From the sequence record NZ_AP023325.1: DNA of 44,333 bases, one strand, 5' to 3'. The translations under genes and the position numbers were made by a program. Shown here one piece after another: positions 1 through 44,333 of the stretch. The stretch is from a plasmid. Within the stretch, counting starts at the first letter, position 1, and the number at the start of each line of letters is the position of its first letter. The notes under the pieces were generated by a model that did no database searches, had not been told where the DNA came from, and worked only from the letters and a program-made list of their open reading frames with translations.

Positions 1-2
1 GC

Positions 3-270
3 CTCGCCGAGTTCGAGCGAGAACTGATCGTCGAGCGCACGCGCGCCGGTCTGGAGTCCGCTCGGGCACGCGGTCGGCACGGCGGGCGTCCGTTCAAGAT
101 GACGCCGGCCAAACTGCGTCTCGCCAGCCGCGATGGGCAAACCGGAAACCAAGGTCGCGGAGCTATGCGCCGAACTCGGCGTGACGCGCCAAACACTCTA
201 CCGACACGTCACGCCGAAGGGCGAGATCAGGCCCGATGGTGAAAAGCTGTTGGCGCGAGGGCGCCGATAG
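3..270 (+). CDS. tnpR: Serine resolvase (TnpR of transposon 1), C-terminal part continuing from the window end. Catalytic-domain end (LAEFERELIVERTRAGLESARARG) in frame 3, then the HTH (MGKPETKVAELCAELGVTRQTLYRHVTPKGE) in frame 1, implying a 1-bp indel near 125-135.
   Basis: Own translation. Conserved resolvase motifs. The window end (…GRLIFAIFA + g) joins the window start (gc ctc gcc…) in frame to give IFAGLAEFERE. Confidence 0.8.
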
Positions 271-293: not shown

Positions 294-1073
294 TCAGAGC
301 GACGATGCCGTAACGTAGGTTCCTACCGCAATCACGACGGCGGCAAAGCCACGTTCGAGCAGCCCCTTACGGGTGCCGAGAACCTTGCCCAATGCAATAC
401 CGCCGATCGTTCCAGCGACGCCGCCCACGACCAGCATCGCGGTCACGCTCCAGTCGACCAGCCCCGACAGGGCGTAGGACAAGGCGGTGGTCAACCCCAG
501 CGCGCTGACGACGACCAGCGACGTGCCGATCGCGAAGGGCAGCGGCATCGCGGTCGCGAGGATCAGCCCCGGCACGATCAGGAAGCCGCCCCCGATCCCG
601 AAGAAGCCGGCGGCAAGCCCGACGCCCAGCCCGATCGGAACCAAGCGCGGCAGCAGCGTCGAGGCGCTATCGCGGGTCAGTCGCACGTCCGGCGCTTCCG
701 CCGTGCGGCGCTTGCGCAACATCGACAAACCGACGCCAATCATCAGAAGCCCGAACAGGACAAGCAGTCGCTTGCCGTCGAACGCCTTGCCCAACTCCGC
801 CCCCAGCGCCGCGCCGATCATTCCGGAGACGGCGAAGACACTGGCGCACCGCCATTTCACGCGGCCCGCTCGCGCATGGCCGACCAGGCTGGCAAGCGCA
901 TTGACGGTGACGGCGACAGCGGCCGTCCCGATCGCAGCGTGCGGTGATCCGACGCCGACAACATAGATCAGGAGTGGCACGGCGAGGATCGACCCGCCTC
1001 CGCCGACAAGGCCGAGGATCAGGCCAATCACGCCGCCCGATGCAAGCGCGGCAAGGGTGGCAGCGGTGTCCAC
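294..1073 (-). CDS. TauE/SafE (DUF81) family sulfite/anion exporter-like membrane protein, 259 aa, intact.
   Basis: ORF track. Glycine-rich multi-TM repeats (GGGGSILAVPLL…, GIGGGFLIVPGL) typical of TauE/SafE. It sits in a BigR-type operon. Confidence 0.8.
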   Translation of the reverse strand: MDTAATLAALASGGVIGLILGLVGGGGSILAVPLLIYVVGVGSPHAAIGTAAVAVTVNALASLVGHARAGRVKWRCASVFAVSGMIGAALGAELGKAFDGKRLLVLFGLLMIGVGLSMLRKRRTAEAPDVRLTRDSASTLLPRLVPIGLGVGLAAGFFGIGGGFLIVPGLILATAMPLPFAIGTSLVVVSALGLTTALSYALSGLVDWSVTAMLVVGGVAGTIGGIALGKVLGTRKGLLERGFAAVVIAVGTYVTASSL

Positions 1074-1080
1074 GATCGCC

Positions 1081-1598
1081 TCAGGCTGTCGCGCGCCGGT
1101 TCCAGGGCATGACGCGCAGCAGGTTGGCCATGCCGCACCACCCCGTCACGCCCGCGAACATCAGCCCCGCCCCGACGAACGCCGACAGCCCGAAGAAGCC
1201 GGGAGCGACGAACGTGCCGAGCAGAACGCCGATCAGCACCAGCCCACCGGCGGTAATCTGCACCTGCCGCATGATTTCCAACGGCTGCGACCGATCGGCG
1301 ACGGTGGGCTGTCCTGCCTGCCGCCACGCATCGATGCCGCCGCCCAGATATAGGCCGGCGCGCCACCCGCTGCCGCGCCGAGCTGCGCCGCATTGGCGGC
1401 GGTGCGCATCCCGGACTTGCAGTGAAAGACGACCGGACGATCGTCGCGCGGGAGATCGCCGATCCGGTCGAGCGGCACGTTCATCGCGCCGGGAATGCGT
1501 TCGCGCGCATGCTCGTCGGCACCGCGAATGTCGATCAGGCGCGCACCGGCATCGATCGCGGCACGGGTATCGTCGGGAGAAAGGGTCGCGAGCGTCAT
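1081..1598 (-). CDS. YgaP-like rhodanese (sulfurtransferase) fused to a C-terminal DUF2892 two-TM domain. The reading frame is broken by a 1-bp deletion at ~1346-1352 (…GGAPAYI / [35 protein letters not shown]…).
   Basis: Own translation of both frames. Rhodanese active-site loop [11 protein letters not shown]. The frames rejoin exactly if one c is restored in cctatatc(c)tgggc. Confidence 0.75.
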
Positions 1599-1602
1599 CG
1601 CA

Positions 1603-1899
1603 TCAATCCTTGCAGTAGAGCTGGTAGAGAGTGCCGAGCAGCGTTTCGACGCGGGCATCCGCGATGGCGTACCAGAGCGTCTGGCTCTCCCGCCGGTAGG
1701 TGACGAGACCCTCGTCGCGCATCCTCGCCGTGCTGCGAGCAGGCCGACTGCGACAAGCCGACATCACGGGCCAGATCGCCGACCGTCATCTCGCCATGCT
1801 CGACCAGCTTGCACAGCAGCATCAGCCGGCGAGCATTGCCGATCGCCTTCAGCGTGTCGGCGACCTGCCCGGCCTTCGCCTCGAATGTCGCCAGTCCAT
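1603..1899 (-). CDS. ArsR/SmtB-family (BigR-like) HTH repressor, ~99 aa, with two apparent 1-2-bp indels (~1729-1731 and ~1890).
   Basis: Own translation: …AKAGQVADTLKAIGNARRLMLLCKLVEHGEMTVGDLARDVGLSQSA | VSQHLARMRDEGLVTYRRESQTLWYAIADARVETLLGTLYQLYCKD. Classic ArsR wHTH, recovered by shifting frame. Confidence 0.65.
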
Positions 1900-1951
1900 C
1901 GGCGGTTTGAGCATCATCGCCACTCCATTAGGTGTTGCTTATGTAGCACCA

Positions 1952-1965
1952 GCTAATATATTAGC
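1952..1965. promoter_or_regulatory. Perfect 14-bp palindrome GCTAATATATTAGC in the divergent arsR/MBL intergenic region (flanked by TTGCT…AGCAA). Candidate ArsR/BigR operator.
   Basis: Seen in sequence. It sits between divergent promoters, ~20 bp upstream of the GGAGA RBS of the MBL gene. Confidence 0.5.
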
Positions 1966-1985
1966 AAGCGCTAACGGAGAAAATC

Positions 1986-2861
1986 ATGACTCAGCCCCTC
2001 ATCGAGGCGTTTTTCGACGAGCCGACCAATACGATTAGCTACCTCGTCGGCGATCCCGCGACACGGACTGCGGCGGTGATCGATCCAGTCCTCGACTTCG
2101 ACATGGCGAGCGGCGTCGCCGACACGCGCTCGGCCGAGCGGATCGTCGCCTTCGCCCGCGAGCAGGACTGGCGGATCGCGATGGTGCTGGAGACGCACGC
2201 TCATGCCGATCATCTGTCGGCCGCACCCTTCATCAAGGCGCATACAGGCGCATGGATCGGGATCGGCGCGCATATCCGCGACGTGCAGAAAATCTTCCGC
2301 CCCGTGTTCGCGATGGATGATCTGAAAACGGACGGCTCGGACTTCGACCGCCTGTTCGAGAATGGCGACCAGTTCGCGATCGGGGCGCTGGCGGTCGAGG
2401 TGCTGCATGTCCCCGGCCACACCCCGGCCGACGTGACCTATCTGATCGGCGATGCGGCGTTCGTCGGGGATACGCTGTTCATGCCCGACTATGGCACCGC
2501 CCGCGCCGACTTCCCGGGCGGGGATGCGCGGACGCTCTATCGCTCGATCCGCCGGCTATTGGCGCTGCCCGACGAGACGCGACTGTTCCTCTGCCACGAC
2601 TACAAGGCACCGGGTCGCGACGACTATCGCTGGGAGACGACGGTGGGCGAGCAGCGACGGTCGAGCGTCCACGTCCATGACGGTGTGAATGAGGACGACT
2701 TCGTCGCCATGCGCGAGCAGCGTGACGCCGGGCTATCCGTGCCCAAGCTCCTGCTGCCCTCGATCCAGGTCAACATCCGCGCGGGCCATTTCGATCAGGC
2801 GGAGGCGAACGGTGTCACCTACTTGCGTATTCCGGTAAAATGGAAAGCCGGCCATCCGTGA
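1986..2861 (+). CDS. MBL-fold metallo-hydrolase, ETHE1/Blh-like persulfide dioxygenase (291 aa, intact).
   Basis: ORF track. ETHAHADH (HxHxDH) motif. GGAGA RBS 6 nt upstream. Divergent from an ArsR gene, as in bigR-blh loci. Confidence 0.75.
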   Translation: MTQPLIEAFFDEPTNTISYLVGDPATRTAAVIDPVLDFDMASGVADTRSAERIVAFAREQDWRIAMVLETHAHADHLSAAPFIKAHTGAWIGIGAHIRDVQKIFRPVFAMDDLKTDGSDFDRLFENGDQFAIGALAVEVLHVPGHTPADVTYLIGDAAFVGDTLFMPDYGTARADFPGGDARTLYRSIRRLLALPDETRLFLCHDYKAPGRDDYRWETTVGEQRRSSVHVHDGVNEDDFVAMREQRDAGLSVPKLLLPSIQVNIRAGHFDQAEANGVTYLRIPVKWKAGHP

Positions 2862-2890: not shown

Positions 2891-2928
2891 CTTAGCGTAC
2901 GTTTTCGACCATCCTCTCACCGGTCCCC
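2891..2928. repeat. 38-bp terminal inverted repeat of Tn3-family transposon 1 (cttagcgtacgttttcgaccatcctctcaccggtcccc), followed by the TSD GTTCT (2929-2933).
   Basis: Perfect reverse-complement match to 40857-40894. Canonical GGGG…ACGCTAAG Tn3-family IR architecture. Confidence 0.85.
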
Positions 2929-4218
2929 GTTCTGGCGGCCCTTCACCGACATTCCCGATATCGACATGGACACGGCCGCGATCGTCCGCGCCTGGAGCGC
3001 GGCGCGCGACGCGGTGCTTACGATCCTACGCGCGAAAGCCGCCGCGCCCCTGGATGCGATGGAGCTGTCGCCAGAATGCATCGCCGCGATCGACGCCTAT
3101 GACGTTCATCGCGCGATGGTTGCTGACCTCTCGGACGCGCTCCTCGCCCGCAATCCATCGATCGCCATCGTCAAGGAACAGGCCGCAGTCGCCGACATAG
3201 CCACGCTGTCCGACGACCTCGCGAAGCTCACCGCTGTAAGGACGCGGCACCAGACACCCACCGCCGCGCTTTGCGATGCATACCTCGGGGAGAAAGCGGC
3301 CAAGAAGGCGACGGAAAAATTACGCGATGAGGCACGCGCCGCGCTCGACCAATATCGGGGAGGTGTCTTCCCCGCCTACGAGGCCGCGATCAACGACTAT
3401 CTGGGCCGCTTCAACGCCGGTTTTCGGCTTGGCTCCGTCACGTCGGTGAACAACCGGGGCGGATCGTCCGCCAGCTACAGCGTACTCATCAACAACGTCG
3501 CGGTCGCGCTGAGCGCCGATGGTGGCCCTTCGTTCAAGAACACGCTCAGCGCCGGTGATCGAAACGCCCTCGCCTTGGCCTTCTTCTTCGCCTCGCTCGA
3601 TCAGGACGCCCGGTTGGCGGAAAAGGTCGTGGTCATCGACGATCCCATGACAAGCCTGGATGAACATCGGCGGCTCACGACGGTCCAGAGATGCGCCGGC
3701 TATATGGCCGGGTACGTCAGATGATCGTGTTATCTCATTCCAAGGCGTTTCTCTGCGCCGTGTGGGACGGCGCGGATCGAATGGCTCGCTGCGCCCTTCA
3801 GATCGTGCGAAGCGGCGGGGGATCGACGCTCGCGCCCTGGGACGTGCGGCAAGACACGCTCACGCCGCACGATCGCCGGCACGAGCTGGTGCGGGAATAT
3901 CTCCGGACCAGCGATTCCGCGCGCGAGCGCGAGGTCGCTGCGGCGCTCCGTCCAATCCTAGAAGCGTTCATGCGGGTGGCTCACCCCGAAACCTTCCCGC
4001 CAGGCACACTGCTTGGCCCATTCATTGCCATATGCCAGCAGCGGCATGATGGACCCGGCGAGATACTATCCCCGGTTGCGACGACCGAGCTGCGCGCGCT
4101 GCTCGATTACGCCAACACCTTCCATCACGATACGAACCCGGCTTGGGAAACCGCCCTCATCAACGATCGGGAGCTGCTTGGCTTCGCTACCCGGACGATT
4201 GCCTTCGCTTCGCGGTAA
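2929..4218 (+). pseudogene. 3' half of an AAA_13/RloC-PrrC-like ABC-type ATPase gene cut by transposon 1. Carries the ABC signature LSAGDRNALALAFFFASL, Walker B/D-loop VVVIDDPMTSLDEHR and a ~170-aa C-terminal domain of unknown function. Has an additional 1-bp frameshift at ~3690.
   Basis: Own translation. Once the transposon and one TSD copy are removed it continues in frame from the 5' half at 39853-40856 (…VENREFW|RPFTDIPDID…). Confidence 0.7.
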
Positions 4219-20798: not shown

Positions 20799-20865
20799 GC
20801 CGCCCTGTTCGCTACCTGTTCAGCTTACCGCTGTCCGTGTCACAAACCTTGAGGTGCTCCCTATC

Positions 20866-26129: not shown

Positions 26130-26802
26130 GCGTCCCGGATCATGTAGCCCGCCCCGCGCACCGTCTCGATCGCGTCCACGTCGAACCCGGCGTTGAGCTT
26201 GGAGCGCAGCCGGCTCAGATGCGTCTCGACGATGTTGGTCTTCGGATCGAAGTCGAAGTCCCAGACGCGTTCGAGCAGCATGGTGCGGGTCATCACCCGA
26301 CGCGGATTGCGCATCAGCTCGGCCAGCAGCGCGAACTCGCGCGGTTGCAGGGTCACGCGCCGTCCCGCCCGCTCAACCGTGCGGCGATGCAGGTCGAGCA
26401 CGATGTCGCCGACCCGGAGCAGGTGGGCATCGTCGCCGCGCGGTGCCGGCCGGCGCGCCAGCGCATTGAGGCGCGCCGCCAGCTCGGAAAAGGCGAACGG
26501 CTTGACCAGATAGTCGTCGGCACCGCCTTCCAGTCCCTCAACCCGGTCCGCGATCCCGCCGATCGCGGTCAGCATCAGCACCGGCGTCGCGTCGCCGGCC
26601 GCGCGCAGCGCCTTGACCAGAGCGAGGCCATCAAGGCCGGGCAGCATCCGGTCGACCACGATCGCGTCAAAACCGCCGCCGGTCGCTGGAACAGCCCGTC
26701 GCGGCCATCGGCGCTGACCGCAACCTGATGTCCGGCCTGTCCCAGACCCTGCGCCACGAAGGCGCGGGTGTCGGCATCATCCTCGACGATCAATATCCGC
26801 AT
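26126..26802 (-). CDS. OmpR-family response regulator, frameshift ~26660-26700.
   Basis: Receiver MRILIVEDDADTR… in one frame, winged-helix …TVRGAGYMI in another. Confidence 0.75.
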
Positions 26803-26809
26803 CGCCCGA

Positions 26810-31100: not shown

Positions 31101-31300
31101 CACCGTCACCGGCTTTCGACCTCCTCGGTCGACAGCCCCGGCGCCTCGGTCTGGATTTCCACCATCGGCGGTGCGAATTCGGGGAACACGTCGAGCGGCA
31201 CGTCGCGACCGGCGCGAACGCCGAGCACGACCAGCAAGGCGGCCAGCGCGAGGACGAGGACACGCTGTGCCAGCGCGAAGTGGACGAGCCGGCCGAGCAT
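28182..31300 (-). CDS. Heavy-metal-efflux RND pump (CzcA/CusA family), at least 3 frameshifts.
   Basis: Long RND TM signature ([47 protein letters not shown]) spread over several ORF-track frames. Confidence 0.75.
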
Positions 31301-32276
31301 CAGTGCGCCGCCCCGAACTCGGTGCCGAACAGCTCGGCCGCGCCATCGGTGACGACATGCGCGCCGGCCGTCAGCCCGCGCGCCAGCAGCGCCCGTCCGC
31401 CGCTTTCCGACGCCACCTCGACGCGCTGGCGCACGAAGGTGTCGGGCGCGGTCCGCTGATAGACCCACTCGCCACCGTGGATATCGCGCAGGATCGCCGC
31501 GGACGGCACCGACAGTCCCTCGGTCTGCCCGGCGAGCGGCAGGTCCACCGCGACCCGCTGGCCGACGCGGAAGGCGCGATCGCGATTGTCGATGGCGTAA
31601 TACAGGTCGACCGTGCCCGCGACGGTGTTGGCCGAAGGCGGCGCCTGAACCGGGCGCGCGGCGCGGGAGCGCCGCCATCGCCGAGCGTGCGCACCGTCGC
31701 GCTGGCCGCGCGGCGCACATCGCCCATGTCGCTGCCGAACACCGATGCGCGAACCCATAGGACGGGCTGCGAGCCGAGCGCGGCGACTGCCGGTCCGAGC
31801 AACCGTCGCTGCTGACGGGCAGCGCCGAGCGCCGCCTGCGCCGCTGCCATCGCCGCTGCGGCTTCGTCGCGGGCGCGCACGCTACCGGCCTCCTCGCGCA
31901 CCAGGCTTTCCGCCCGGTCGAGCGCGATCCTCGCCAGCCGCGCCTGCGCCGTGGCGCGGGCCAGTTCGGCGTCGGCCGCCGCCTGCTGGCTGCCGATCTG
32001 CTGGAGGTTGGTGGTCGAGTTGACCGGCACGCCATTGGCGCTGATCGGCGGCACGACGATCTCGCCGGCAACCTCGCGCGTGGCGGAGGCCGATCCTCCA
32101 CCCACCCGCGCCATTGCTATGCCAAGACGCTGCTGGGCCTGGGGGGTGAGGGTCAGCTTCAACAGCTCGCTCTCATGCGCGATCGTCTCCGCATGGGCGG
32201 GCGGCGCGGGCGGCTTCGTAGCCTTCTCGCCACAGCCGGCGAGCAGGATCGGGATCAGGAAAAGGGTTTGACGCAT
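31300..32276 (-). CDS. RND membrane-fusion protein (CzcB/CusB-like), 1 frameshift.
   Basis: Lipoprotein signal LLAGCG. Beta-barrel/hairpin MFP motifs. Its stop overlaps the RND start. Confidence 0.65.
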
Positions 32277-32479
32277 CCCGGCGACCTAGCGGCCCAAGAA
32301 TGGGCGCCGCTGGAGCCGACTATACAAAGTCCCAATGTATGCCGTCATGGGCAGGTTTTGATTTGAATTTGCCCGTGCAATCCACGACCTGAATAGCCGT
32401 GCTGTCATGCGATGGCGGCCTCAGACCGCTAAGTCGGGGCGCCGATAATCAATGAGCTGGCGTCAAAGGACGTGCGACC

Positions 32480-33247
32480 ATGCAAAGCGAAACTCTGCGA
32501 CAATACGGCAAGGTGCCTGCCGTCACGCTCGGCTTCTGGATCGTCAAGATTCTGGCGACGACGCTCGGCGAAACGGGGGGCGATACGCTCAGCATGACGA
32601 TGAACCTCGGTTATCTGGCGGCGACGGGCATTTTCGCTGTCCTGCTGATCACGCTGGTGACGGCGCAGGTCGCCGCCCGTCGGTTCCACCCGCTGCTCTA
32701 TTGGGCGACGATCATCGCCTCCACGACGGCCGGCACGACGATGGCCGACTTCGCGACGCGCTCGCTCGGGATCGGCTACACTGGCGGGTCGCTTTTATTG
32801 CTGGCACTGGTGCTGGCGTCCCTCGCAACCTGGCGTGCGGTGATGGGGCGGATCGATGCCGACGATATTCAGGACCGTCGCGCCGAACTGTTTTACTGGC
32901 TGACGATTACCTTCTCGCAGACGCTCGGAACCGCGCTCGGCGACTGGCTCGCCGATACCGGCGGGCTGGGTTATCTCGGTGCTGCGCTGGTGTTCGCGGG
33001 CGGTCTGGCGGTGCTGACGCTGCTCTACCTGCGCACATCGGTCGACCGCGTCATCTTGTTTTGGGCAGCGTTCATCCTGACCCGGCCGCTCGGCGCGGCG
33101 GTGGGGGACTTTCTCGATAAGCCGGTCGCAAAGGGCGGTTTGGACTTCAGTCGGCCAGTGGCATCGGGTGTCCTGATCGCAGCCGTCGTCCTGCTGGTCT
33201 TGCTGTTGCCTCAGCGTCCCGGTCGCCACGGTGATGCTGCCGTCTGA
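32480..33247 (+). CDS. Membrane protein with four internal T(T)xG…D repeats (COG4705-like), hypothetical.
   Basis: ORF track. Repeated LGETGGD / AGTTMAD / LGTALGD / LGAAVGD units. Confidence 0.45.
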   Translation: MQSETLRQYGKVPAVTLGFWIVKILATTLGETGGDTLSMTMNLGYLAATGIFAVLLITLVTAQVAARRFHPLLYWATIIASTTAGTTMADFATRSLGIGYTGGSLLLLALVLASLATWRAVMGRIDADDIQDRRAELFYWLTITFSQTLGTALGDWLADTGGLGYLGAALVFAGGLAVLTLLYLRTSVDRVILFWAAFILTRPLGAAVGDFLDKPVAKGGLDFSRPVASGVLIAAVVLLVLLLPQRPGRHGDAAV

Positions 33248-33354
33248 GATGGGCATTCCGCACATGGATGCCTGAGCGACTTTCCCCCAAACGAACGGGT
33301 AGCGAGACGGCCAGCGCTTTCCCACAAGGATCGAGAAACGGGAATATGCGACGA

Positions 33355-33818
33355 TTAAAGGGGTAGACCTAGAAAAGCTGTACCGGGGATCGGATTGTAG
33401 GATACGGGTTCCGCCGGCACAAAGCCGAACGCTTCGTATAGCTTCCGAGCGGACGTGAACTCCTCTAACACATCCAGTCTCATTTCGACGTAGCCAGCCT
33501 TGCGGGCCTCTAAAATCAACTGGCCTACCAAGTCTCGACCTAGCTGCGTTCCCCGTGCCCGTGGGCGGACATACAGGCGCTTCATCTCGCAAAGGCCGGG
33601 CGGACTTGGCGATAGGCGATGCAACCATCTATCTCGCCATCGTTGTCCGCTACCAACACACATCCCTTCGGCGGTGCGTACTTACCGGGCAACGTCGCGA
33701 ACTCAGCATCGTTAGCTTGATAGTCGAGGCTAACGCTTGGACTGGCGATATACTCCCGCCAGATATCCAGCACTGTGTGAAGGTCGGCCGGGAAATTAGC
33801 CCATCTGATAATCGTCAT
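33355..33818 (-). CDS. GNAT-family N-acetyltransferase, 1 frameshift.
   Basis: …CEMKRLYVRPRARGTQLGRDLV… acetyl-CoA-binding motif. Confidence 0.6.
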
Positions 33819-33964
33819 AGCTCCATGCTTCACAAAAACGTGGCGGCAATGTGAGCGCACCTACCCGGCAGGGGTATCTCGATTGGGAACAGCCAGCGAG
33901 CCGGCGCGGGCGTTCTCGAAATCGATTGAATGTCGGGAAAAGCGACCTGACCAGCGAGCAGGGC

Positions 33965-34306
33965 CTACTCGGCGTTGCGGCGCAAAGTCCTCTCGATCAG
34001 CCAAAGGTGCAGAAGCTGCACCGCGACAAGTGTGACACCGGTTCCGACCAGCACGGGGAATACAAGTGACTCCTGCCCGGCTCGGGCAGGAACATTCAAC
34101 GCCATGAATACCTGAAAGCCAAGAACGCCGATTGCCAAGATCGGTATGAAGGCAAGCGCAACGGATCGGGGCGCGGACCAATTCACTGCCCCTGTGATCC
34201 CCCACTGCATTGGAAGTCGGCTCTCGTTGCGAAAGCGTATGTTCGCGCGGTAAGCTAAGGCAGAAAGTATCACGACAAAGACTGCCGAAACGACCAGCAT
34301 ACCCAT
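33965..34306 (-). CDS. Small membrane protein (113 aa) in a lower-GC patch.
   Basis: ORF track. 3-4 TM helices. Confidence 0.4.
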   Translation of the reverse strand: MGMLVVSAVFVVILSALAYRANIRFRNESRLPMQWGITGAVNWSAPRSVALAFIPILAIGVLGFQVFMALNVPARAGQESLVFPVLVGTGVTLVAVQLLHLWLIERTLRRNAE

Positions 34307-34434
34307 AAACCGGCTCCTTCACGGATCGTCGTAGCATATTACCGACACAACGTCTCGCCTTCCCGTTTGGGATCGAATATCGGGAAACAGATATCTTTCC
34401 CAAAACCCGTCAGACGCCTCAAAATCGAGAACAC

Positions 34435-35306
34435 CTATCGCGAGGCGATCACGTTCAGCAAAGCGTCCGCAGCTTTCGTGCGGTAGCGCTCCTTGTGTCG
34501 TAATCCGAAGAAGGGGCGAGGCTCGAACGCGATCGGGGCGACGTGCAGCGCACCTGCCGCGACGGCCGGTCCCACCACCAGCGCCGACAGGACGGCGACG
34601 CCGGCACCCGCCTCGACAGCCGTGCGGACGCTCTCGTTGGAGGGCATCGTCAGCGCCACGTCGAGCATGGTCGGATCGACACTCAAGCGGCGCAGGTGGC
34701 GGTCGAACGTCGAGCGCGTGCCGGACCCCGGTTCGCGCAGCACCCAGCGCGCCTGACGCAGCCAATCGGCGTCGATCGGCGCATTCCCGAACGGGCTGGC
34801 ACTCACCAGCAACAACCGATCCTCGCCGATCGGCCAGTGCGCCAGCGCCGGATCGTCGATCTGCCCCTCGACGATCCCTAGGTCCGCTCCACCGTCATGG
34901 ACGCGGGCGGCTGCCTGCTCGCTGTTGCCGATCGCGAGGTCGATAGCGATCGCGGGGTGGCGCGTGTGGAAGGTCGCGAGGAAAGGCGGCAGCCAATAAG
35001 CAGCGATGGTCTGGCTGGCGACGACCCGGAGCGTGCCCCGCTCCAGTCCGCCCAATTCGCGCAGGACCGTCTGAGCCATGTCCGCCCGCGCGAGGACCCC
35101 GCGCGCTTCGGCCAGAACAGTCGCCCGGCCTCGGTCAGCGCAATGCCGCGCCCGACGCGGTGGAACAGCTTGATTTGATGCCGCTCCTCCAGCGCCGCAA
35201 TGGCCGCAGAGGCCGCCGACTGGGTGACGTTCAGGGCGCGGGCGGCAGCGGTCATGTGCTCCCGCTCGGCCACGGCGACGAAAATGCGAAGCTGCTCAAG
35301 CGTCAT
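34435..35306 (-). CDS. LysR-family transcriptional regulator (YeiE-like), 1 frameshift.
   Basis: N-terminal HTH MTLEQLRIFVAVAEREHMTAAARALNVTQSAAS plus a substrate-binding domain. Divergent from a YeiH-family gene. Confidence 0.7.
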
Positions 35307-35415
35307 GCTTCGCCTATAAGGCAAACGATCACATTTGACGATCGGAATGACAATATAGATGCGTTAGAACGATCAGTGGTTGCGGCATAGATGATGCGGC
35401 GGAAGGAACACCGCC

Positions 35416-36474
35416 GTGACCACCATTGCTCAATCCCACGCTGCCGCGTCGATCACCGAGTCCGACAGGCTGCTCACGCTCCTGCCGGGTATCGGTCTGT
35501 GCCTGGTCGTAACCGGCGTCGCTTATGCGCTGGAGGCAGGCGAGCGCGCCTGGCGGGAAAGGCGTGGCTGGAGGCGCTGGTGCTCGCCATTCTGATCGGT
35601 ACCGCGATCCGCAGCCTGTGGACGCCCGGCGACCGATGGCACGAGGGCATCGCATTCAGTGCCAAGTATCTCGGAAGTCGCAGTCGTCCTGCTCGGCGCT
35701 TCCGTCAGTGCCGCCACCATTTTGGCCGCTGGTGTCCCGTTGCTCGTCGGCATCGCCGGCGTGGTGGCGAGTGCGATCCTGCTCAGCTTCGGCATCGGGC
35801 GCCTGCTCGGCCTGCCGACGCGCATGGCGCTGCTGGTCGCATGCGGCAATTCGATCTGCGGCAACTCGGCCATCGCCGCGGTGGCACCGGTGATCGGGGC
35901 CGACAGCGATGACGTCGCCGCCTCCATCGCGTTCACCGCCGTGCTGGGCGTCATCGTGGTGCTGGGCCTGCCGCTGCTCGGCATCGCGCTGGGCATGAGC
36001 GGCATCGCCTTCGGGGCGCTGGCCGGACTGACCGTGTACGCGGTGCCGCAGGTGATCGCGGCCGCCTCGCCACTGGGGGCTGCGGCCGTGCAGATGGGGA
36101 CGCTGGTCAAGCTCGTCCGCGTGCTGATGCTGGGGCCTGTGTGCCTCGTCCTGTCGCTGATCGCACCACGCCTTGCCCCGCAGCAGATGCCTGCGGAAGA
36201 GGTCGTGGCGGGCACCGCGCGGGCAAAGACGTTCGATCTCGCTCATCTCGTCCCGTGGTTCATCATCGGCTTTCTCGTGATGGTCGCCTGCCGGTCGTTT
36301 GGGCTGGTGCCGACCGCTGCGATTCCGCCGATCGGCCGCATTGCCACCTTGCTGACCGTGGTGTCGATGGCGGCATTGGGGTTGGGCGTCGACGTTCGCA
36401 CCGTCGCAAAGGCAGGCGGCAAGGTGACGACTGCCGTGGTGCTGTCGCTGCTCGTCTGGGCGCGATCAGCATGA
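35416..36474 (+). CDS. YeiH/UPF0324 (COG2855) putative sulfate-exporter-family membrane protein, at least 2 frameshifts.
   Basis: Multi-TM. Classic LysR-divergent arrangement. Confidence 0.6.
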
Positions 36475-36599
36475 CCCTGCTGGCCCTGTTGCACATCGCG
36501 TGACGGCCGATCGTGGCCGAAGCGGATCGAATGACATGGGTTTATGTTGAGCCGGATGCGCGGATCGCCCGTGTCTGACCGTATGGAGTTGCCGATATC

Positions 36600-36968
36600 G
36601 TGAGAATCCCGCTCAAGACAGCGCTCGCCGCTGCCGCTCTGGTCAGCGGCACGGCGCTGGCCCAGACCAGCGACTTCGCCACCGTGATGGCCGGTGCGAT
36701 GCAGCGCATGCATCAGGCGATGGCGGTCCCATCGACCGGCGATCCCGATCGCGACTTCGCCGCGATGATGATCCCGCATCATCAGGGTGCGATCGACATG
36801 GCCGAGGCGGAACTCCGCTTCGGCAAGGACGAGCGGCTACGCCGCATGGCACAAGGCATCATCGTCGAGCAGCGGCAGGAGATTGCCGTGATGCAGGCCA
36901 TCCTGAACGAAAAGGGCGGCGCTCCCGCCGCTCCCCAGACCCACCATTCGGAAGGAACCCATCGGTGA
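36600..36968 (+). CDS. DUF305-domain periplasmic protein (associated with copper/metal resistance).
   Basis: Signal peptide. MIPHHQGAIDMA motif. Confidence 0.65.
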   Translation: MRIPLKTALAAAALVSGTALAQTSDFATVMAGAMQRMHQAMAVPSTGDPDRDFAAMMIPHHQGAIDMAEAELRFGKDERLRRMAQGIIVEQRQEIAVMQAILNEKGGAPAAPQTHHSEGTHR

Positions 36969-38103
36969 AGCAGCTGATCCTCGCAGCCCTTGCCGGCACC
37001 ATGCTGGCCCCCGTCGCGGCGACCGCGCAGCAGGTGCCGAACGCACAGCCCGACATGCCCGTCTCGTCCAGCGACCGGTTCTACACCTCGGACCAGTTTT
37101 CCAACACCGTGTCGGTCATCGATCCGTCGACCAACCGGCTTCTTGGCGTCATCAAGCTGGGCGATCCGACGCCGATGAACCTCAGCCCGCTCTATCGTGG
37201 GCAGCTGCTGGTCCACGGCATGGGCTTCTCGCCCGACCGGCGGACGCTCGCCGTCGTGTCGATTGGATCGAATGCGGTCAGCTTCATCGACACCGCCACC
37301 AACAGCGTTCGCCACACGACCTATGTCGGCCGCAGCCCGCACGAGGCCTTCTTCCGCCCCGACGGCCGGGAGGTCTGGGTCAGCGTGCGCGGCGAGGACT
37401 ATATCGCCGTCCTCGATGGTACGACCTACAAGGAGACGGGCCGCATTCCCGTCCCGAACGGTCCCGGCATGACGATCTTCTCGCCGGACGGGAAGTATGG
37501 CTATGTCTGCTCCAGCTTCTCGCCCGAAACCGTGGTGATCGACACCACGTCGAAGCAGATCGTCGGCCGGGTGAAGCAGGAAAGTCCCTTCTGCCCCGAC
37601 ATCGCCGCGACGCCCGATGGCAAGCAGGTCTGGCTGACGCTGAAGGACATCGGCAAGGTCATGGTGTTCAACGCGAAACCTCCGTTCGCGGTCCTGAAGA
37701 GCTTCGCGACAGGCGCGATCACCAATCACGTCAATATCGCGAAGACGCCGCGTGGCCAGTTCGCCTATGTGACGGTCGGCACCGAAAATGTCGTGAAGGT
37801 GTTCCGCACCGACGATTTCACCCAGGTCGCGACGGTCCCGGTTGGAGCGCTGCCGCACGGGCTATGGCCCTCGGGCGACGGCAGCCGCATCTATGTCGGC
37901 TTGAGAATGCCGATGCGGTTGCCGCGATCGACACCGCGACGAACAAGGTCATCGCGACCATCCCGATCGGGCAAGGCCCGCAAGGGGTCGCCTATGTTCC
38001 AGGCGCGGTGCCGTTAGGCACCGGCATGGCCAATCTCCAACCACTCGCCAAGGCGGGTGAGAAGGTTCAGCTGATGCTCTCCGGCACCGGACGGAGCCAG
38101 TGA
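36965..38103 (+). CDS. YVTN-family beta-propeller repeat protein, 1 frameshift ~37900.
   Basis: Repeated …NTVSVIDPSTN… / …DTATN… YVTN-like blades. Signal peptide. Confidence 0.6.
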
Positions 38104-38393
38104 CGCTGTTCGATCAGGGGCAGGTGCAGATCCTGCAAGCCGCCGTCGCGGGCCTGCCGCCGAAGATACCGTTCGTGCTGGGCCTGTCCACCAGCCCCGA
38201 TGGCAAAGGCCCGGTAGAACCGCTGGCCAAGTTCATGACCAATCCCGCAGGCGGTGCGATCGTGAATGCGGTTGGACCGCTGCGGCAGATCGTCACACAG
38301 TCTGCTCCCGCAGGGGCGCGTCGCTATCTGGTGATCGCGTCTGGTCAGCCGGACGCCGTGGGCAACGTCGTTCAACGGCAGGTCGAACAGTAA
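38100..38393 (+). CDS. Hypothetical 97-aa ORF. Its GTG overlaps the upstream stop and it may be a C-terminal extension of the propeller protein.
   Basis: ORF track only. Confidence 0.3.
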   Translation: MTLFDQGQVQILQAAVAGLPPKIPFVLGLSTSPDGKGPVEPLAKFMTNPAGGAIVNAVGPLRQIVTQSAPAGARRYLVIASGQPDAVGNVVQRQVEQ

Positions 38394-38408
38394 CGGATAC
38401 CCGTTCTT

Positions 38409-38441
38409 AAACGAGCATCGGGGACGCCCCGATGCTCGTTT
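38409..38441 (+). terminator. Perfect 15-bp stem / 3-nt loop hairpin AAACGAGCATCGGGG-ACG-CCCCGATGCTCGTTT.
   Basis: Seen in sequence after the metal cluster. No T-tract. Confidence 0.5.
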
Positions 38442-38452
38442 CCAACTATCGA

Positions 38453-38588
38453 TTCCCAAAAACGAACGTGTGACGGGAATCCGGCCACGCCGATCGCGCT
38501 GACGGACGCCTGCGGGTTCCGCTTTCCCGAAACCTGTTCCCGATTTACAATTCCCGAAACTGCCAATTTCGACGGGGAAACGGGAAAG
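38453..38588. promoter_or_regulatory. res: res-like array of TTCCC/GGGAA half-sites upstream of the resolvase at 38589. Includes ATTCCC-N17-GGGAAT, TTCCCGAAAC x2 and TTTCGACGGGGAAACGGGAAAG.
   Basis: Seen in sequence. Position and architecture typical of resolvase res subsites I-III. Confidence 0.55.
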
Positions 38589-39167
38589 ATGCTGATCGGC
38601 TATGCGCGTGTCTCGACGGCCGATCAGGATTTGACGTTGCAACTCGATGCACTGGCAAAGGCCGGGTGCGAGAAGGTGTTCACCGACAAGGCGAGCGGCG
38701 CGAAGATCAACCGGCCGGGGCTGATCGAGGCGCTGGGTTTCGCACGCGCCGGCGACACGCTGGTAATCTGGAAACTCGATCGGCTCGGTCGCTCGATCCA
38801 AGGCCTGATCGCGCTGGCGGCGGACCTGTCGGCACGGGGGATTGATTTTCGCTCGCTGACGGACGGGTTTGATACATCGACGGCATCGGGCCGGCTCCTG
38901 TTCCATATCCTCGCCTCGGTCGCGGAAATGGAGCGCGAGCTGGTCAAGGAGCGGACGATCGCCGGCTTGGCGGCTGCGCGCGAGAAGGGCAGCACGGGAG
39001 GGCGCAAGCTGGTGATGACGCCCGACAGGATCGACACGGCCTGCAAGTTGCTCGCCGTGGGCGAGAAGCCGGCGCGGATCGCGAAGCTGCTGGGCGTTGG
39101 CCTCTCGACCTTCTACCGGCAATTCCCGGCGAGCGAACGGGAGGCCGCGTCCAGCACCGAAGGGTGA
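38589..39167 (+). CDS. Serine recombinase/resolvase, intact (192 aa).
   Basis: MLIGYARVSTADQDLTLQ…, C-terminal HTH. Confidence 0.85.
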   Translation: MLIGYARVSTADQDLTLQLDALAKAGCEKVFTDKASGAKINRPGLIEALGFARAGDTLVIWKLDRLGRSIQGLIALAADLSARGIDFRSLTDGFDTSTASGRLLFHILASVAEMERELVKERTIAGLAAAREKGSTGGRKLVMTPDRIDTACKLLAVGEKPARIAKLLGVGLSTFYRQFPASEREAASSTEG

Positions 39168-39427: not shown

Positions 39428-39856
39428 ATGAACAAGCTGACCAGCGACGCCATTGAGGTCGTCAACCGCAACGCGCTCGTCACCGTCGCGCTGAACCAAG
39501 GCTATAACGCCTATCTGCCAGTCTATGACAACGGCATCGACCTGATCCTGCATAACGAGGCGTCGGGCGACACCCGACTTATTCAGCTCAAGGGGCGGTG
39601 GACGATCGACCGCAAATACATAGGCCGCGACATTTGGATCGCGTTTCCCGATCGTGGATGCTGGTATGTGGCCCCGCACGATGAGATGATGCGGCTCGGC
39701 GAGCGACACACCATGACGGAAAGCTGGGCGAGGGGCACCTATAGCAAGAGCCCGCTTAGCAAGACGGATTGCGAGGAGCTGGCCGACTATCGTTTCGGCG
39801 ATCCCGATCTTGTGATCGCGGAAGCGGAAAAGCTGGAGAGGATGGATGACGCATGA
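39428..39856 (+). CDS. Small PD-(D/E)xK-like (Hjc/restriction-endonuclease-fold-like) protein, ~142 aa. Its stop overlaps the ATG of the downstream ATPase gene.
   Basis: GAGGTG SD. Motif YDNGIDLILHN…(11)…IQLKGR (D…Q/E-x-K). Lower GC. ATGA coupling to the next gene. Confidence 0.5.
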   Translation: MNKLTSDAIEVVNRNALVTVALNQGYNAYLPVYDNGIDLILHNEASGDTRLIQLKGRWTIDRKYIGRDIWIAFPDRGCWYVAPHDEMMRLGERHTMTESWARGTYSKSPLSKTDCEELADYRFGDPDLVIAEAEKLERMDDA

Positions 39857-40856
39857 CGATCGAACGACTTCAGCTTCTTCGTAACGTCGGTCAGTTCGAT
39901 TCCGTCACCACCGGCGCGCAAACTCCGCTTACCAGGCTATCGCTAATCTATGCCGAGAACGGTCGTGGCAAGACGACACTCGCCACCATCCTGCGCTCGC
40001 TCGGCACGGGCGACACGGCGCTGATCGATGAGCGGCGGCGGCTCGGTTCCGCTCATGCGCCGCATATCGTCCTGGCTTCGGCCGGAGCGCCATTCACCTA
40101 TCAGAACGGCGCGTGGTCGGTGCTTCATCCCGACATAGCCGTGTTCGATGACGGGTTCGTCGCCGCCAACGTCTGCTCTGGCATCGCGATCGAAACGGCG
40201 CACAAGCAGAACCTGCATGAGCTGATCTTGGGAGCGCGCGGCGTCGCGCTGAACAGCGCCCTTCAAGGCCACGTCGAACGGATCGAGGAGCATAACCGCG
40301 CGCTACGCCTGAAGGGTGATGCCATACCCGCTGCGGCTCGCGGCACCCTGACCGTCGATGCTTTCTGCAAGCTCGCGGTCAATCCGGTGATTGACGCCAG
40401 AATCGCTAGGGCAGAGCAAAGCCTATCTGCGGCCTGGGCCGCCGGTGCAATCCGGGTGCGCCCGGCCTTCACGGCGCTATCCCTACCAACCTTCGATCGC
40501 GATGGCCTGAATGCCTTGCTCGCGCGCGGCTTGCCAGCGTTGGAAGCGGACGCCGCCGCGCGGGTAAAGGCTCACCTTCGTCGCCTCGGTCGGGATGGGG
40601 AGACATGGGTAGGGAGGGCATGACGCGCATTGCCGGCGCGTCGCAAGACCAACCTGGCGAGATATGCCCATTCTGTGCGCAGGATCTCGCGGCTTCCCGC
40701 TGATCCGGCATTACCAAGCCTATTTCAGCGATGCCTATGCCGAGCTGCGCAACACGATCAACCAAATCGGGAAGGGGATCAACACGACGCATGGCGGCGA
40801 CGTGCCGGCGGCATTCGAACGAGCGGTGCGCGTCGCGGTAGAAAATCGGGAGTTCT
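39853..40856 (+). pseudogene. 5' half of the AAA_13/RloC-PrrC-like ABC ATPase gene. Walker A ENGRGKTTL, coiled-coil insert, CPFCAQDL zinc-hook-like motif. 1 frameshift ~40615. Cut at 40856 by transposon 1.
   Basis: Own translation. In-frame continuation at 2934 after removing the transposon and one TSD. Confidence 0.7.
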
Positions 40857-40894
40857 GGGGACCGGTGAGAGGATGGTCGAAAACGTACGCTAAG
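40857..40894. repeat. 38-bp terminal IR of transposon 1 (GGGGACCGGTGAGAGGATGGTCGAAAACGTACGCTAAG), preceded by the TSD GTTCT (40852-40856).
   Basis: Perfect inverted match to 2891-2928. Confidence 0.85.
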
Positions 40895-43869
40895 CGTCCC
40901 GGCTTTGCTGGTGGAGGCGCAGCGGCCTGAACCGCTCGCGAGGTTTGTCGATCTCGCCCCAGAGATAGTCGCCGGTGAGGCCGATATGCTCCCAGCCCAG
41001 AGGGGCGACGTGGGCGAGCAGCTCGTCGGGCACGTCGACGCCGCTGCCGCGCAGATGACGGACAGCTCGGTCGAGATAGACGGTGTTCCAGAGCGTCATG
41101 GCCGCGGTGACGAGGGTCAGGCCGGAGGCGCGATGGCGCTGGTTCTCGAAGGTGCGGTCGCGCAGTTCGCCGAGGCGGTTGAAGAAGATGGCGCGGGCGA
41201 GCGCGTTGCGGGCCTCGCCCTTGTTGAGAATGCTGCCGGTGCGACGACGCTGGTCGGGATCATCGAACCAGTCGAGCATGAACAGGGTGCGTTCGATCCG
41301 ACCTATCTCCGCAGCGCGCGGGCGACCGAGTTCTGACGCGGGAAGCCCGCCAGCTTGCGGAGCATGACCGAGGCGCTCACCGTGCCGGCGCGGATCGAGG
41401 CGGCAAGGCGCAGGGTTTCGTCCCAGTTCTCCTCGATCGCGCGGATCTTGACCGGACCGGCGACGAGCGGGCGCAGCGTCGGCCACGAGTCGAGCGGCGA
41501 CAGGCTGTAGAGCCGGCGCTCGTTGAGGTCGCGGATGCGGGGCGCGAAGCGGAAGCCGAGCAGATGGCACAGGCCGAAGACATGATCGACCGCGCCGGCG
41601 GTATCGGTCGCATGTTCGCGGATGACCAGCTCGCTTTCATGGTCGAGCAGGCCGTCGAGGACATGCGCGGCCTCGCCGGCATTGGCGGCGATGACCTTGG
41701 TGTGGAACGGCGTGAAGCGGTCGGTGACGTGGGTGTAGAACAGCACGCCTGGTTCGGTGCCATAGCGGGCGTTGTGATCGGCGCGGGCCTCGCCCTGACC
41801 ACCGGCACGAAAGAACTGCCCGTCCGACGACGATGTATCGCCCGGTCCCCAGACCGCCGCGAGCGGATGCGCGGTATGGCAATCGACGATCGCCGCCAGC
41901 GCCGACAGATAGGTTTCGTCGCGCACATGCCATTCCGCCGTCCAGCGCAGGCGAGACAACGTCAGCCCGCGCGAGCTTTCGGCCATGCGGCCCGGCCGAG
42001 GTTGGTCGCATCGGCGAGGATCGCACCCATCAGCGCGGACTGGTCGGAGGCGGGCGCCGCTGCGCGCATGGACGAAACGGTCGGCGAATCCCGACCATGC
42101 GGCGACCTCGACCAGCAGATCGGTGATTCGGACGCGCGGCAGCATCGCGTAGAGCCGGGCCTTTAGCGCATCGGCATCGTCGGACGGGGATCGCCGGATC
42201 GACGATATGAGCAACTGCCCGCGTTCGATCGTCACATCGACCAGCTCGCCCGCTGCGGCTGCGCGCTCCACCTCCGTCATGCGCCGGGCCAACAGGGTGC
42301 GGCGTTCCTCGTACCATTTGGAAAAGTCGGTCGGCACAACCAGGCGCAGATCGCCGCTCGCGCGCATCGCTTCGAAGGCGGGCATGGGCAGCTGATAGTC
42401 GTCGAGCGTGCGATAGGCGCGGCTGCCGTCCACCCAGATGCTGCCCGAGCCGAGCCGCTCGCGCAGGTGGGCGATCACTGCGATCTCATAGGCGCGCCGG
42501 TCTATCGTCCCTTCCGCCGGCTGCACGACCTTGCGCCAGCGCGGCTTGATGAAGCTGGTCGGCACTCGCTTCGGCAGGACCGATCGACCGTCGCGGTACA
42601 TCGTGCGCAGCACCTCGATCGCGCCGAGCAGCGGATCAGCCAACCGCGCGGTGCGGAAGGTGAAAGCGGCGAGAAACGTCGGGGCGAAACGCCGCACGGC
42701 GGGATAGCGTTCGACCACTTCTTCCAGCCCGTCATCGGCCGAGCGCGTCAGATCCTCGGCAAAGCGGATGCTGCGTTCGAGCTGATCCCAGCCCATCTTC
42801 GCGTCGATCGCGCGGAAGGCATCGCGCCCGCTCGCACGAGCATCTACCAGCAGGCGACCGAGCCGGGCATGGAAACGCGCGGTGTCCTTCAGCATCCGTG
42901 CCCGGCCGAGCAGCCGATCGGAGCGGGTGCGGTCGGCACGGCGGAACAGCGCGCCCACCATCTTCTCCACCATGACCAGCGCGGCGTCGGTCAACGTCGC
43001 TTCCATCTCGATCACGGAAGCTACGAGCATGGCGAGCCGGCGCGGACGTTCGAGACGCCGCAGGTGCTGGGCGGTGACGATGCCGGCGGTCCGCGCAATG
43101 ACGGCATAGCGAGCAGCATGGATACGTCGTGCTCGATCAGCCGCGATCCCGATGCCGCGCACGGTGTCGAGCCGTTCGACGATTCCCTTCAGGTCCGCGG
43201 CCGATGGTGCTTCCGGCCATTCGCGTATCCATCCTAGCCGGGTGCGCCCATCATCGTCGGAGGCGATCATGTGTTCGAGTGCGGCTTCCTGTTCGGTCGA
43301 ACAGTCGCGGATCAGATTGAATGGGCCGCCTTGCGCGCCCGTGTCCGCACGATGAGGGCGAGCCGTTCCAGCGTCGATGTCGCCGGCAGTACGATCCGGT
43401 CCGCCCGCAAGCGATCGACCATGCCTGTGACGATCGTCTCACCTCTATCAGTCGAAGCGGCAATCTCCGATCCCAGCGCCAGCATCGCCCGTACATCCAC
43501 CCGCGCGAAGGCGCGCAGACCGAGCAGAGCTTCGATCTCGGCCCGGTGTTCGCGCAATGTCGTGGGGCGCGTGGCATAGCCGGTGAAGTCGTCGGCTACG
43601 CACCCGATCTGATCGGCGAGCAGCGCGAGCATGGCGGCGGGCACCGCATCCCCCGTCAGTAGCCTGCGACCGGGATGACGCAGGTAGCAAAGCTGCACCG
43701 CATAGCCGAGCCGGTTCGCCCCGCGCCGACGTCGCGCCACCTGTGCCAGATCGTCGGGACCGAGCGTATAGAGCCGTTCGATCGTCGCGCGATCGGCAGG
43801 CGGGTCGAAGATCAGCAGCTGCGCGGGCGACAGGATGGTCTTGGTCGGCATCGGCTTCCTGTTCGTCAC
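40890..43869 (-). CDS. tnpA: Tn3-family transposase TnpA of transposon 1, ~990 aa over 3 frames (at least 2 frameshifts). Its C-terminus ends inside the IR.
   Basis: N-terminus [22 protein letters not shown]…, central 655-aa piece, C-terminus …[18 protein letters not shown]…. Confidence 0.8.
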
Positions 43870-43979
43870 GAAACAGGAAAGCGTACCCGTTCATGGAGCA
43901 TAGACCAGAAGACGGGTTATGTGACATTATCGCGATTGATCGACGGGCAATGCCGCTCCGTCACGTGAACGGACGTATA
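43870..43979. promoter_or_regulatory. res: Probable res site between divergent tnpA and tnpR. Contains TGTGACA-type repeats (TTATGTGACATTA, TATATGTGACAACG).
   Basis: Seen in sequence. Canonical position. Confidence 0.45.
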
Positions 43980-44333
43980 TGTGACAACGCAGATCGGTTA
44001 CGCGCGGGTGTCCAAGGCGGACGGCAGCCGTCCACGACCTGCAGCACGACGCGCTGGTCGCGGCCGGCGTCGATCCCGAGCATATCTATGAGGATGCCGC
44101 ATCGGGCCGGCTCGACAAGCGACCGGGACTGGACGCCTGCCTGAAGGCGCTGCGCCGCGACGACACGCTGGTCATCTGGAAACTCGATCGGCTCGGCCGC
44201 GATTTGCGCCACCTCGTCAATACGGTTGGTGATCTGACGAAGCGTGGCATCGGGTTGAAGGTGCTGGCGGGCGAAGGCGCGTCGATTGACACAACCACCG
44301 CCAACGGTCGGCTGATCTTCGCGATTTTCGCCG
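43980..44333 (+). CDS. tnpR: Serine resolvase TnpR of transposon 1, N-terminal part (GTG start). Indel at ~44030. Runs off the window end and continues at base 3.
   Basis: VTTQIGYARVSKADGS…DTLVIWKLDRLGRDLRHLV…GRLIFAIFA. Confidence 0.8.

Follow-up and report, generated by a model that had tools for sequence, protein, structure and literature searches.

The 44,333-nt stretch of plasmid DNA in sequence record NZ_AP023325.1, referred to as a whole as the window, contains a transposon that runs from position 40857 over the end of the record to position 2928 and bears four sulfur-related genes as cargo. The element is very likely a replicative transposon of the Tn3 family that entered an AAA_13 ATPase gene on a circular plasmid of sphingomonads and carries a captured persulfide module, with frameshifts that are artefacts of sequencing. 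The ends of the element and the interrupted gene are located as follows.

40852..40856, no strand: left copy of the target-site duplication GTTCT, directly outside IR-L
40857..40894, plus strand: IR-L, terminal inverted repeat (IR) GGGG...ACGCTAAG, exact reverse complement of 2891-2928
2891..2928, minus strand: IR-R, 38-bp terminal inverted repeat, exact reverse complement of IR-L
2929..2933, no strand: right copy of the target-site duplication GTTCT, directly outside IR-R
39853..40856, plus strand: 5' part of the interrupted target gene, an AAA_13 ATPase (PADLOC candidate-defence family PDC-S06), which resumes at 2934 and runs to about 3724 and beyond

The two 38-bp ends, IR-L (GGGGACCGGTGAGAGGATGGTCGAAAACGTACGCTAAG) at 40857-40894 and IR-R at 2891-2928, were determined to be exact reverse complements. 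The IRs of the Tn3 family are about 38 bp long, start with GGGG and end with ...ACGNTAAG; the perfect 38-bp repeats found here read GGGGACC...ACGCTAAG. The sequence of IR-L was unchanged in three public copies of the element and had 0-3 mismatches in sibling elements. When the window end was joined to the window start, the length of the element resulted to be 6405 bp, 16 bases shorter than the intact 6421-bp copy on the Sphingomonas paucimobilis FDAARGOS_908 plasmid NZ_CP065669.1, with which it was aligned at 99.7% identity. The alignment with this copy was unbroken at the join of window end and window start (Tn coordinate 3477), and the window is therefore a circular plasmid.

The removal of the element and one GTTCT in silico produced an open reading frame (ORF) that ran through the junction with AAA_13 signatures on both sides. 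Over the junction, 300 aa of this restored ORF corresponded to one ungapped 900-nt piece of intact AAA ATPase genes, and the identity to the intact gene of Sphingobium chlorophenolicum pSPHCH01 was 68%. As the excision restores the AAA_13 frame, the match of the two GTTCT copies is not due to chance and a real transposition with a 5-bp duplication took place. The restoration was followed at the protein level, as the plasmid collection contained no close match over the insertion point that could serve as an empty site at the DNA level. An initial annotation, made from the sequence alone, had described a 6.4-kb element with perfect 38-bp IRs and a GTTCT duplication. The size agrees with both lengths given above, the IRs are exact in the window and were also matched in four independent public copies, and the duplication withstood the coordinate check as well as the excision.

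The intact 764-aa homolog of the interrupted gene in pSPHCH01 matched PDC-S06 of PADLOC with 4e-63 and adjoins a restriction-modification system. The insertion may have disabled a plasmid-borne phage-defence candidate. A resolvase homolog (38595-39137, plus strand) is situated 1.7 kb upstream of the insertion site.

The following genes and regions were assigned inside the element.

40890..43851, minus strand: tnpA, Tn3-family DDE transposase, 989 aa when intact, in three frames in the window, with indels at about 41308, 41993, 42051 and 43318
43852..43980, no strand: putative res, the 129-bp divergent intergenic region of tnpA and tnpR
43981..44333, plus strand: tnpR, serine resolvase, 5' part, with a 2-nt deletion at CCAGG near 44029
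1..270, plus strand: tnpR, 3' part (208 aa in all), with a frameshift at CCAGG near 125
294..1073, minus strand: tauE/safE-family membrane protein, 259 aa, intact, putative sulfite/thiosulfate exporter (Pfam TauE PF01925, 2.8e-47)
1081..1598, minus strand: ygaP-like membrane rhodanese, 172 aa when intact (Rhodanese PF00581 and YgaP-like_TM PF11127), with a 1-nt deletion at CCAGG near 1346
1603..1917, minus strand: arsR-family repressor of the YgaV/BigR/SqrR/HlyU clade, 105 aa when intact, with deletions at CCTGGCCAGG (about 1726-1729) and CCAGG (about 1893)
1927..1975, no strand: operator/promoter block with three dyads, O1 at 1928-1941 (TTAGGTGTTGCTTA), O2 at 1943-1956 (GTAGCACCAGCTAA) and O3 at 1961-1974 (TTAGCAAGCGCTAA, perfect)
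1986..2861, plus strand: pdo, type II persulfide dioxygenase (PDO) of the metallo-beta-lactamase (MBL) fold, 291 aa, intact, divergent from arsR-ygaP-tauE

Thus, every gene listed in the initial annotation (tnpA, tnpR, TauE, rhodanese with YgaP transmembrane (TM) domain, ArsR and MBL protein) is present. The intact TnpA (NZ_CP065669.1 locus 3034-6003) scored 1007 bits with the NCBIfam model transpos_Tn3 NF033527, the cutoff of which is 500, and contained the domains DDE_Tnp_Tn3 (PF01526) and DUF4158 (PF13700). The window tnpA, though split by indels, was 97-98% identical to the intact homolog; an additional in-frame 3-nt difference was detected near 43817. TnpR of the intact copy matched the Pfam family Resolvase PF00239 with 9.6e-42. 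The putative res region contains TTCCTGTT-N8-AACAGGAA and repeated TGTGACA/CGTCACG motifs. The element is most similar to those Tn3-family transposons in which res separates a divergent tnpA and tnpR. Because of the TnpA score, the serine resolvase, the 5-bp duplications at two sites and the siblings with other cargo, the predicted membership in the Tn3 family, as proposed in the initial annotation, is supported. By analogy with the family, TnpA would bind the 38-bp IRs and form a cointegrate via a 5-bp staggered cut, leaving the GTTCT duplication, and TnpR would resolve the cointegrate at the 129-bp res.

As read, tnpA of the window copy is spread over three frames, tnpR contains two shifts, and the frames of arsR and the rhodanese gene are shifted too. 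These broken frames could speak for a decayed and immobile relic with real frameshifts, in which only TauE and PDO are functional on the plasmid; this is a highly improbable explanation considering where the defects lie. Altogether 13 difference events were counted between the window copy and the intact copy, and 7 of them were in CCWGG, a motif that makes up 1% of the bases (binomial p = 2e-11). Three further events were changes of homopolymer length. From the other side, 8 of the 13 CCWGG sites in the element were corrupted. The same type of defect was observed in unrelated genes elsewhere in the window: between 34800 and 38470, 6 of the 8 indel events detected against a 98% relative touched CCWGG. 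The defects, 1-2-nt deletions or substitutions as compared with near-identical public sequences, are found for example at 41993, 44029, 125, 1346, 1726-1729, 1893, 35114, 35672, 36455 and 38099. The changes at CCWGG sites were 1-2-nt deletions and not the C>T transitions expected from the deamination of 5mC. In addition, neither IR has lost its perfect match, and identity to the intact copies exceeds 99.8% over the remainder of the element.

Motif-specific basecalling error at Dcm-type methylated sites is a known signature of long reads. Within the element and beyond it, the defects are located at CCWGG and homopolymers. The frameshifts of tnpA, tnpR, ygaP and arsR are therefore almost certainly sequencing errors, and a real pseudogenisation of the window copy was rejected as the leading interpretation. 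The pattern suggests that the host methylates CCWGG and that the window was assembled from long reads without polishing. Pseudogene calls anywhere in the window are consequently suspect, and readings at the gene level need correction first.

The plasmid pSHE10.2 of Sphingomonas hankookensis contains an identical element with perfect IRs, a length of 6421 bp and 2-3 substitutions, which is bordered by a separate duplication, CGTAT. Identical elements were also present in S. sanguinis NBRC 13937 and in two S. paucimobilis plasmids, all at one common site. With three insertion sites, the element is demonstrably mobile among Sphingomonas replicons. At the site in S. paucimobilis (NZ_CP065669.1) and S. 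sanguinis, a further Tn3-type transposase gene (46% identity) directly adjoins the element. In the S. paucimobilis plasmid NZ_CP065714.1, the same 1504-bp IS110-family element was detected in both 38-bp IRs (locus 3036-4539 and 10895-12398), at the same IR position (about nt 33-35) and in mirror orientation. We take these insertions to be comparable with the IR targeting of IS4321/IS5075-type elements. They probably immobilise this copy of the transposon. In RefSeq, the public copies carry only the generic product name 'Tn3 family transposase'.

The nearest relatives are three unnamed sibling elements, which share the tnpA-tnpR core with about 86.5% identity, near-identical IRs (0-3 mismatches), 5-bp duplications and the position of the cargo slot. 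The sibling of Methylorubrum populi pMPPM01 is 3798 bp long and has no cargo (duplication TCCTC). That of Sphingobium baderi NZ_CP128177.1 is 4698 bp long and contains one hypothetical gene (ACAAC). That of Acetobacter aceti pAACEN1, 6007 bp, contains a DJ-1/PfpI gene and an aminotransferase-type gene (regulator), and its duplication is GAACC. In all the siblings and in the present element, the slot is bounded by the 3' end of tnpR and by IR-R, and the tnpR stop codon of the minimal, cargo-free element falls within IR-R. Among these elements, the sulfur module occurs only in the present one.

The central enzyme of the cargo was matched end to end by the structures of Pseudomonas aeruginosa PaPDO (9g8t, 5.9e-113) and P. 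putida PDO2 (4ysk, 2.4e-100), whereas human ETHE1, a type I enzyme (4chl), was matched with 5e-20 only. The identity to PaPDO was 59%, and the iron triad H71/H145/D162 corresponded to H71/H146/D163 of PaPDO (PMC12856154). The sequence THAHADHLS at residues 70-78 fits the motif T-H-x-H-A-D-H-x-T/S (PMC12856154, PMC6060420). With the NCBIfam Blh model NF040641, the protein aligned to positions 141-420 of 423 and scored 387 bits (cutoff 625), and the comparison revealed no DUF442 domain in the PDO. Accordingly classified by homology, the MBL protein would be a stand-alone type II PDO that corresponds to the C-terminal half of Blh. The dioxygenase call of the initial annotation holds, with the iron triad and the THxHADH motif kept on alignment to PaPDO. 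Its label 'ETHE1/Blh-like' has to be refined in that the best structural matches are type II PDOs and that ETHE1 is a distant match.

Of the other cargo proteins, the window TauE was 99.6% identical to that of the NZ_CP065669.1 copy. The rhodanese has the active-site loop CKSGMRT followed by the two-TM domain of YgaP, and it matched the E. coli YgaP structures 2moi (rhodanese, 4.3e-21) and 2mpn (TM, 2e-24). Among solved structures, ArsR matched HlyU (2e-21), E. coli YgaV 3cuo (5.2e-21), BigR 3pqj (3.9e-17) and SqrR (4e-16), and also NolR. It is thus nearer to HlyU and YgaV than to BigR. As a pair, regulator and rhodanese have their closest counterparts in YgaV and YgaP of E. coli. The alignment with YgaV, HlyU, BigR and SqrR extends from end to end, and both sensing cysteines, Cys36 and Cys103, are kept as the counterparts of the BigR pair Cys42/Cys108. 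A third cysteine, Cys60 (window about 1738-1740), lies in the recognition helix, which reads SQSACSQH compared with SQSALSQH in HlyU and SASATSQH in YgaV. In the intact copy, the minus-strand genes arsR, ygaP and tauE are spaced by 4 and 7 nt, the gap of 4 nt being that between arsR and ygaP. Altogether, the reading of the cargo as a persulfide detoxification set is supported by the homology of the predicted proteins.

The regulatory region was compared with 56 homologous arsR-pdo intergenic regions of Proteobacteria, mainly Alphaproteobacteria, and with shuffled controls. At least one perfect TTAG-N6-CTAA dyad was present in 47 of the 56 regions (0.1 in shuffles), and at least two dyads with no more than one mismatch were found in 42 (0.08 in shuffles), usually spaced by 15 bp. 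O3 is the sole perfect TTAG-N6-CTAA in the whole window, where 0.1 was expected. The initial annotation had pointed to a perfect palindrome, GCTAATATATTAGC, in the shared promoter region. It is indeed present at 1952-1965, and is composed of CTAA of O2, TATA, and TTAG of O3. Being perfect, 14 bp long, AT-rich and situated in the divergent promoter region over the likely -10 element, it has the appearance of a repressor operator. The comparison makes this role quite doubtful: the palindrome occurred in only 2 of the 56 regions, both of them copies of the transposon, and its 12-bp core in 5, against the 47 regions with dyads. Compared with the conserved dyads, its half-sites are everted (CTAA-N4-TTAG). 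Palindromes of 14 bp without mismatch were as frequent in the window as in shuffles (5 versus 5.3), and E. coli ygaVP has the dyads and not the palindrome. As an operator in itself, the palindrome was therefore rejected on comparative grounds. The conserved element is the tandem TTAG-N6-CTAA dyads, and the palindrome is a by-product formed by two adjacent copies.

The dyads are also comparable with sites of related regulators. The extended 16-bp form, ATTAG-N6-CTAAT, has the length and the outer ATT...AAT of the SqrR site ATTC-N8-GAAT (PMC9774250). In the E. coli K-12 ygaVP promoter, two TTAG-N6-CTTA dyads were detected 16 bp apart (3175-3188 and 3191-3204 of the extracted stretch). The two dyads flank the transcription start that has been published for ygaVP, located 28 nt before the ATG. 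The YgaV footprint on ygaVP covers the RNA-polymerase recognition and transcription-start region, and the site has been described only as SqrR-like, ATTC-N8-GAAT (PMC9774250). The TTAG-N6-CTAA dyad may be a general operator of the YgaV-like clade. A literature search for a 'BigR box' or a PigS operator provided no sequence for comparison. For pdo we infer a promoter with -35 TTGCTT (1935) and -10 TATATT (1957), 16 nt apart, and for arsR a -35 element in the conserved CTTG(A/C) of the opposite strand.

The module could operate as follows. The YgaV/BigR/SqrR-type ArsR would bind the tandem dyads O1-O3, which overlap the divergent promoters, and repress both of them. A persulfide or polysulfide would bridge Cys36 and Cys103, upon which ArsR would leave the DNA; the release of BigR, SqrR and YgaV from DNA by such cysteine bridging with sulfane sulfur has been described (PMC5823870, PMC9774250, PMC12423496). 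Both transcription units, arsR-ygaP-tauE and the opposite-strand pdo, would thereby be derepressed. YgaP, as the membrane rhodanese, would then shuttle sulfane sulfur to or from glutathione, the type II PDO would oxidise glutathione persulfide (GSSH) to sulfite, and TauE would export sulfite or thiosulfate. Since the PDO has no DUF442 domain and the element no SQR, the module, like the bigR operon of Xylella, is predicted to act on persulfide or sulfane sulfur and not on H2S itself. Due to the same lack of SQR, H2S would first have to be converted to sulfane sulfur by SQR of the host or by chemistry.

Several points weigh against this interpretation of the element and its cargo. The ArsR scored 77 bits with the NCBIfam BigR model NF040642, below the equivalog cutoff of 155 bits. 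No SQR was found in the element or in the ten window ORFs scanned. Even for E. coli YgaP, no substrate has been established in vivo (PMC9774250). A consensus sigma-70 scan of the arsR-pdo intergenic region detected no promoter. The res site is putative, being assigned by position and repeats only. No duplication is present at the site common to S. paucimobilis and S. sanguinis (AATAC versus GGATC), which suggests a later rearrangement between transposons. Finally, transposition, regulation and enzyme activity are all predicted, the functions of the cargo from homology alone.

Two of these points, the absence of SQR from the element and of an established physiological substrate for YgaP (PMC9774250), are also consistent with a different role of the cargo, such as the handling of sulfite or thiosulfate with organosulfonates, cyanide detoxification by the rhodanese, or a response to organotin or xenobiotics. 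According to work cited in PMC12423496 and PMC9774250, the sulfite-exporter role of TauE was established for the metabolism of sulfonates, and the earliest account of ygaVP was of an operon induced by tributyltin. The plasmid otherwise bears metal-type resistance genes. Such a role is unlikely. The central enzyme shares 59% identity with a persulfide dioxygenase of proven activity and keeps every ligand, and the regulator has retained the two persulfide-sensing cysteines common to BigR, SqrR, YgaV and HlyU. Moreover, the bigR and cst operons follow the same logic of regulator, sulfurtransferase, PDO and TauE (PMC5823870, PMC7315123). Persulfide detoxification is consequently preferred as the role of the cargo. 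The initial designation, 'BigR-type H2S/persulfide detox', is supported by the homologs of regulator, sulfurtransferase, PDO and exporter; its BigR and H2S parts need refinement in view of the sub-cutoff BigR score and the lack of SQR and DUF442.

The four-gene cargo was also found alone, without the transposon, with 88% identity in an S. parapaucimobilis plasmid and 86% in a plasmid of Sphingomonas sp. CL5.1. The homology extends from just past the tnpR stop codon to 19 bp before IR-R. The survey of the cargo covered the best 80 genomic loci encoding PDO relatives. In 37 of these, belonging to Sphingomonadales, Bradyrhizobium, Hyphomicrobiales and Acetobacteraceae, the full order was present, with TauE, rhodanese and ArsR on one strand and PDO divergent from them. 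Some Beta- and Gammaproteobacteria had at least the core of ArsR and rhodanese with the opposed PDO. A Tn3-type transposase was nearby at only two of the 80 loci, both of them copies of the present element. As the full arrangement is frequent and only two loci stand beside a Tn3-type transposase, the cargo appears to be a common, widespread chromosomal module of Alphaproteobacteria that was captured once by this transposon.

The backbone of the plasmid, with TraA relaxase, T4 coupling protein, RepA and ParA, was 80-90% identical to Sphingomonas and Sphingobium plasmids, and the window therefore belongs among the mobilisable or conjugative plasmids of sphingomonads. A second, distantly related Tn3-family transposase is located at about 13000-20900 (tnpA-like 17845-20744, plus strand), with 33-69% identity over fragments and with frames broken by errors. 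Resolvase-like genes are found near it at 14050-14601 (minus strand) and 17113-17532 (plus strand). The block of about 13000-20900 is 99.4% identical to Sphingomonas naphthae plasmids, which also bear a Mu-type transposase and an AAA ATPase. Metal- and ion-stress genes occupy 24795-38470, including an RND efflux pump (ACR_tran, 28182-31358, minus strand) and a sensor histidine kinase (24795-26129, minus strand). The same region contains LysR, a YeiH-family putative sulfate/sulfite exporter, DUF305 and a YncE beta-propeller, these four being 98% identical to an S. parapaucimobilis plasmid. YeiH has been discussed as a sulfite exporter (PMC12423496), and the plasmid may bear a second sulfur-anion exporter.

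No relevant paper came up in a full-text literature search that combined persulfide dioxygenase with Tn3 or transposons. We suggest tentatively, and with considerable reserve, that this is the first described Tn3-family transposon with a passenger for persulfide sensing and detoxification moving among Sphingomonas plasmids, that its transfer would provide a selectable tolerance to sulfide, polysulfide or sulfite and possibly change the H2S-linked antibiotic tolerance, and that the dyad would be the operator of the YgaV clade from E. coli to Alphaproteobacteria. The mobile element is ordinary for the Tn3 family and its mechanism, as judged by homology, nowhere unexpected, the class of the cargo being the unusual part. 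For adaptive genes, among them those for antibiotic and mercury resistance, catabolic pathways and virulence factors, the Tn3 family is a major vehicle, and a self-regulated persulfide-dioxygenase cargo would extend this list to reactive-sulfur homeostasis. Recent studies connect the latter with biofilm formation, tolerance to antibiotics and respiration during sulfide stress (PMC5823870, PMC7315123, PMC9774250). The presence of the element on plasmids of S. paucimobilis, an opportunistic pathogen, is noteworthy in this respect.

Compared with known systems, the module resembles the bigR operon of Xylella fastidiosa and Agrobacterium tumefaciens (BigR, Blh and TauE-like protein) and, on the homology evidence, is not a strict member of it. 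Common to both are a promoter-acting ArsR repressor with two cysteines, a sulfurtransferase activity, a persulfide/sulfur dioxygenase with Fe and an exporter of the TauE type, and SQR is present in neither (PMC5823870). In contrast to the bigR operon, the dioxygenase described here has no N-terminal DUF442 and falls below the Blh cutoff, and a rhodanese of the YgaP type, anchored in the membrane, takes the place of the sulfurtransferase as a protein of its own. The regulator remains under the BigR equivalog cutoff, and pdo is divergent from it. The enzyme itself corresponds to the type II PDOs PaPDO (9G8T) and P. putida PDO2 (4YSK/4YSL) in its length of about 290 aa, the C-terminal extension, the 2-His-1-carboxylate triad and the THxHADH motif (PMC12856154, PMC6060420). 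The predicted control of the PDO by a BigR-type repressor has a parallel in the yeeE-yedE-pdo2 operon of Acinetobacter baumannii, where BigR regulates pdo2 (PMC7315123). The transporters of A. baumannii and Serratia are YeeE/YedE, whereas YgaP and TauE accompany a PDO of predicted activity in the present element. Unlike the module, E. coli ygaVP, which encodes the sulfide-responsive repressor YgaV and the membrane rhodanese YgaP, is chromosomal and not transposon-borne, and has no adjacent PDO or TauE. The two systems are alike in that the regulator is a full-length match to YgaV and has the two cysteines, each YgaP domain is matched by the rhodanese, the regulator is followed by the rhodanese, and the promoter contains tandem TTAG-N6-CT(A/T)A dyads (PMC9774250).

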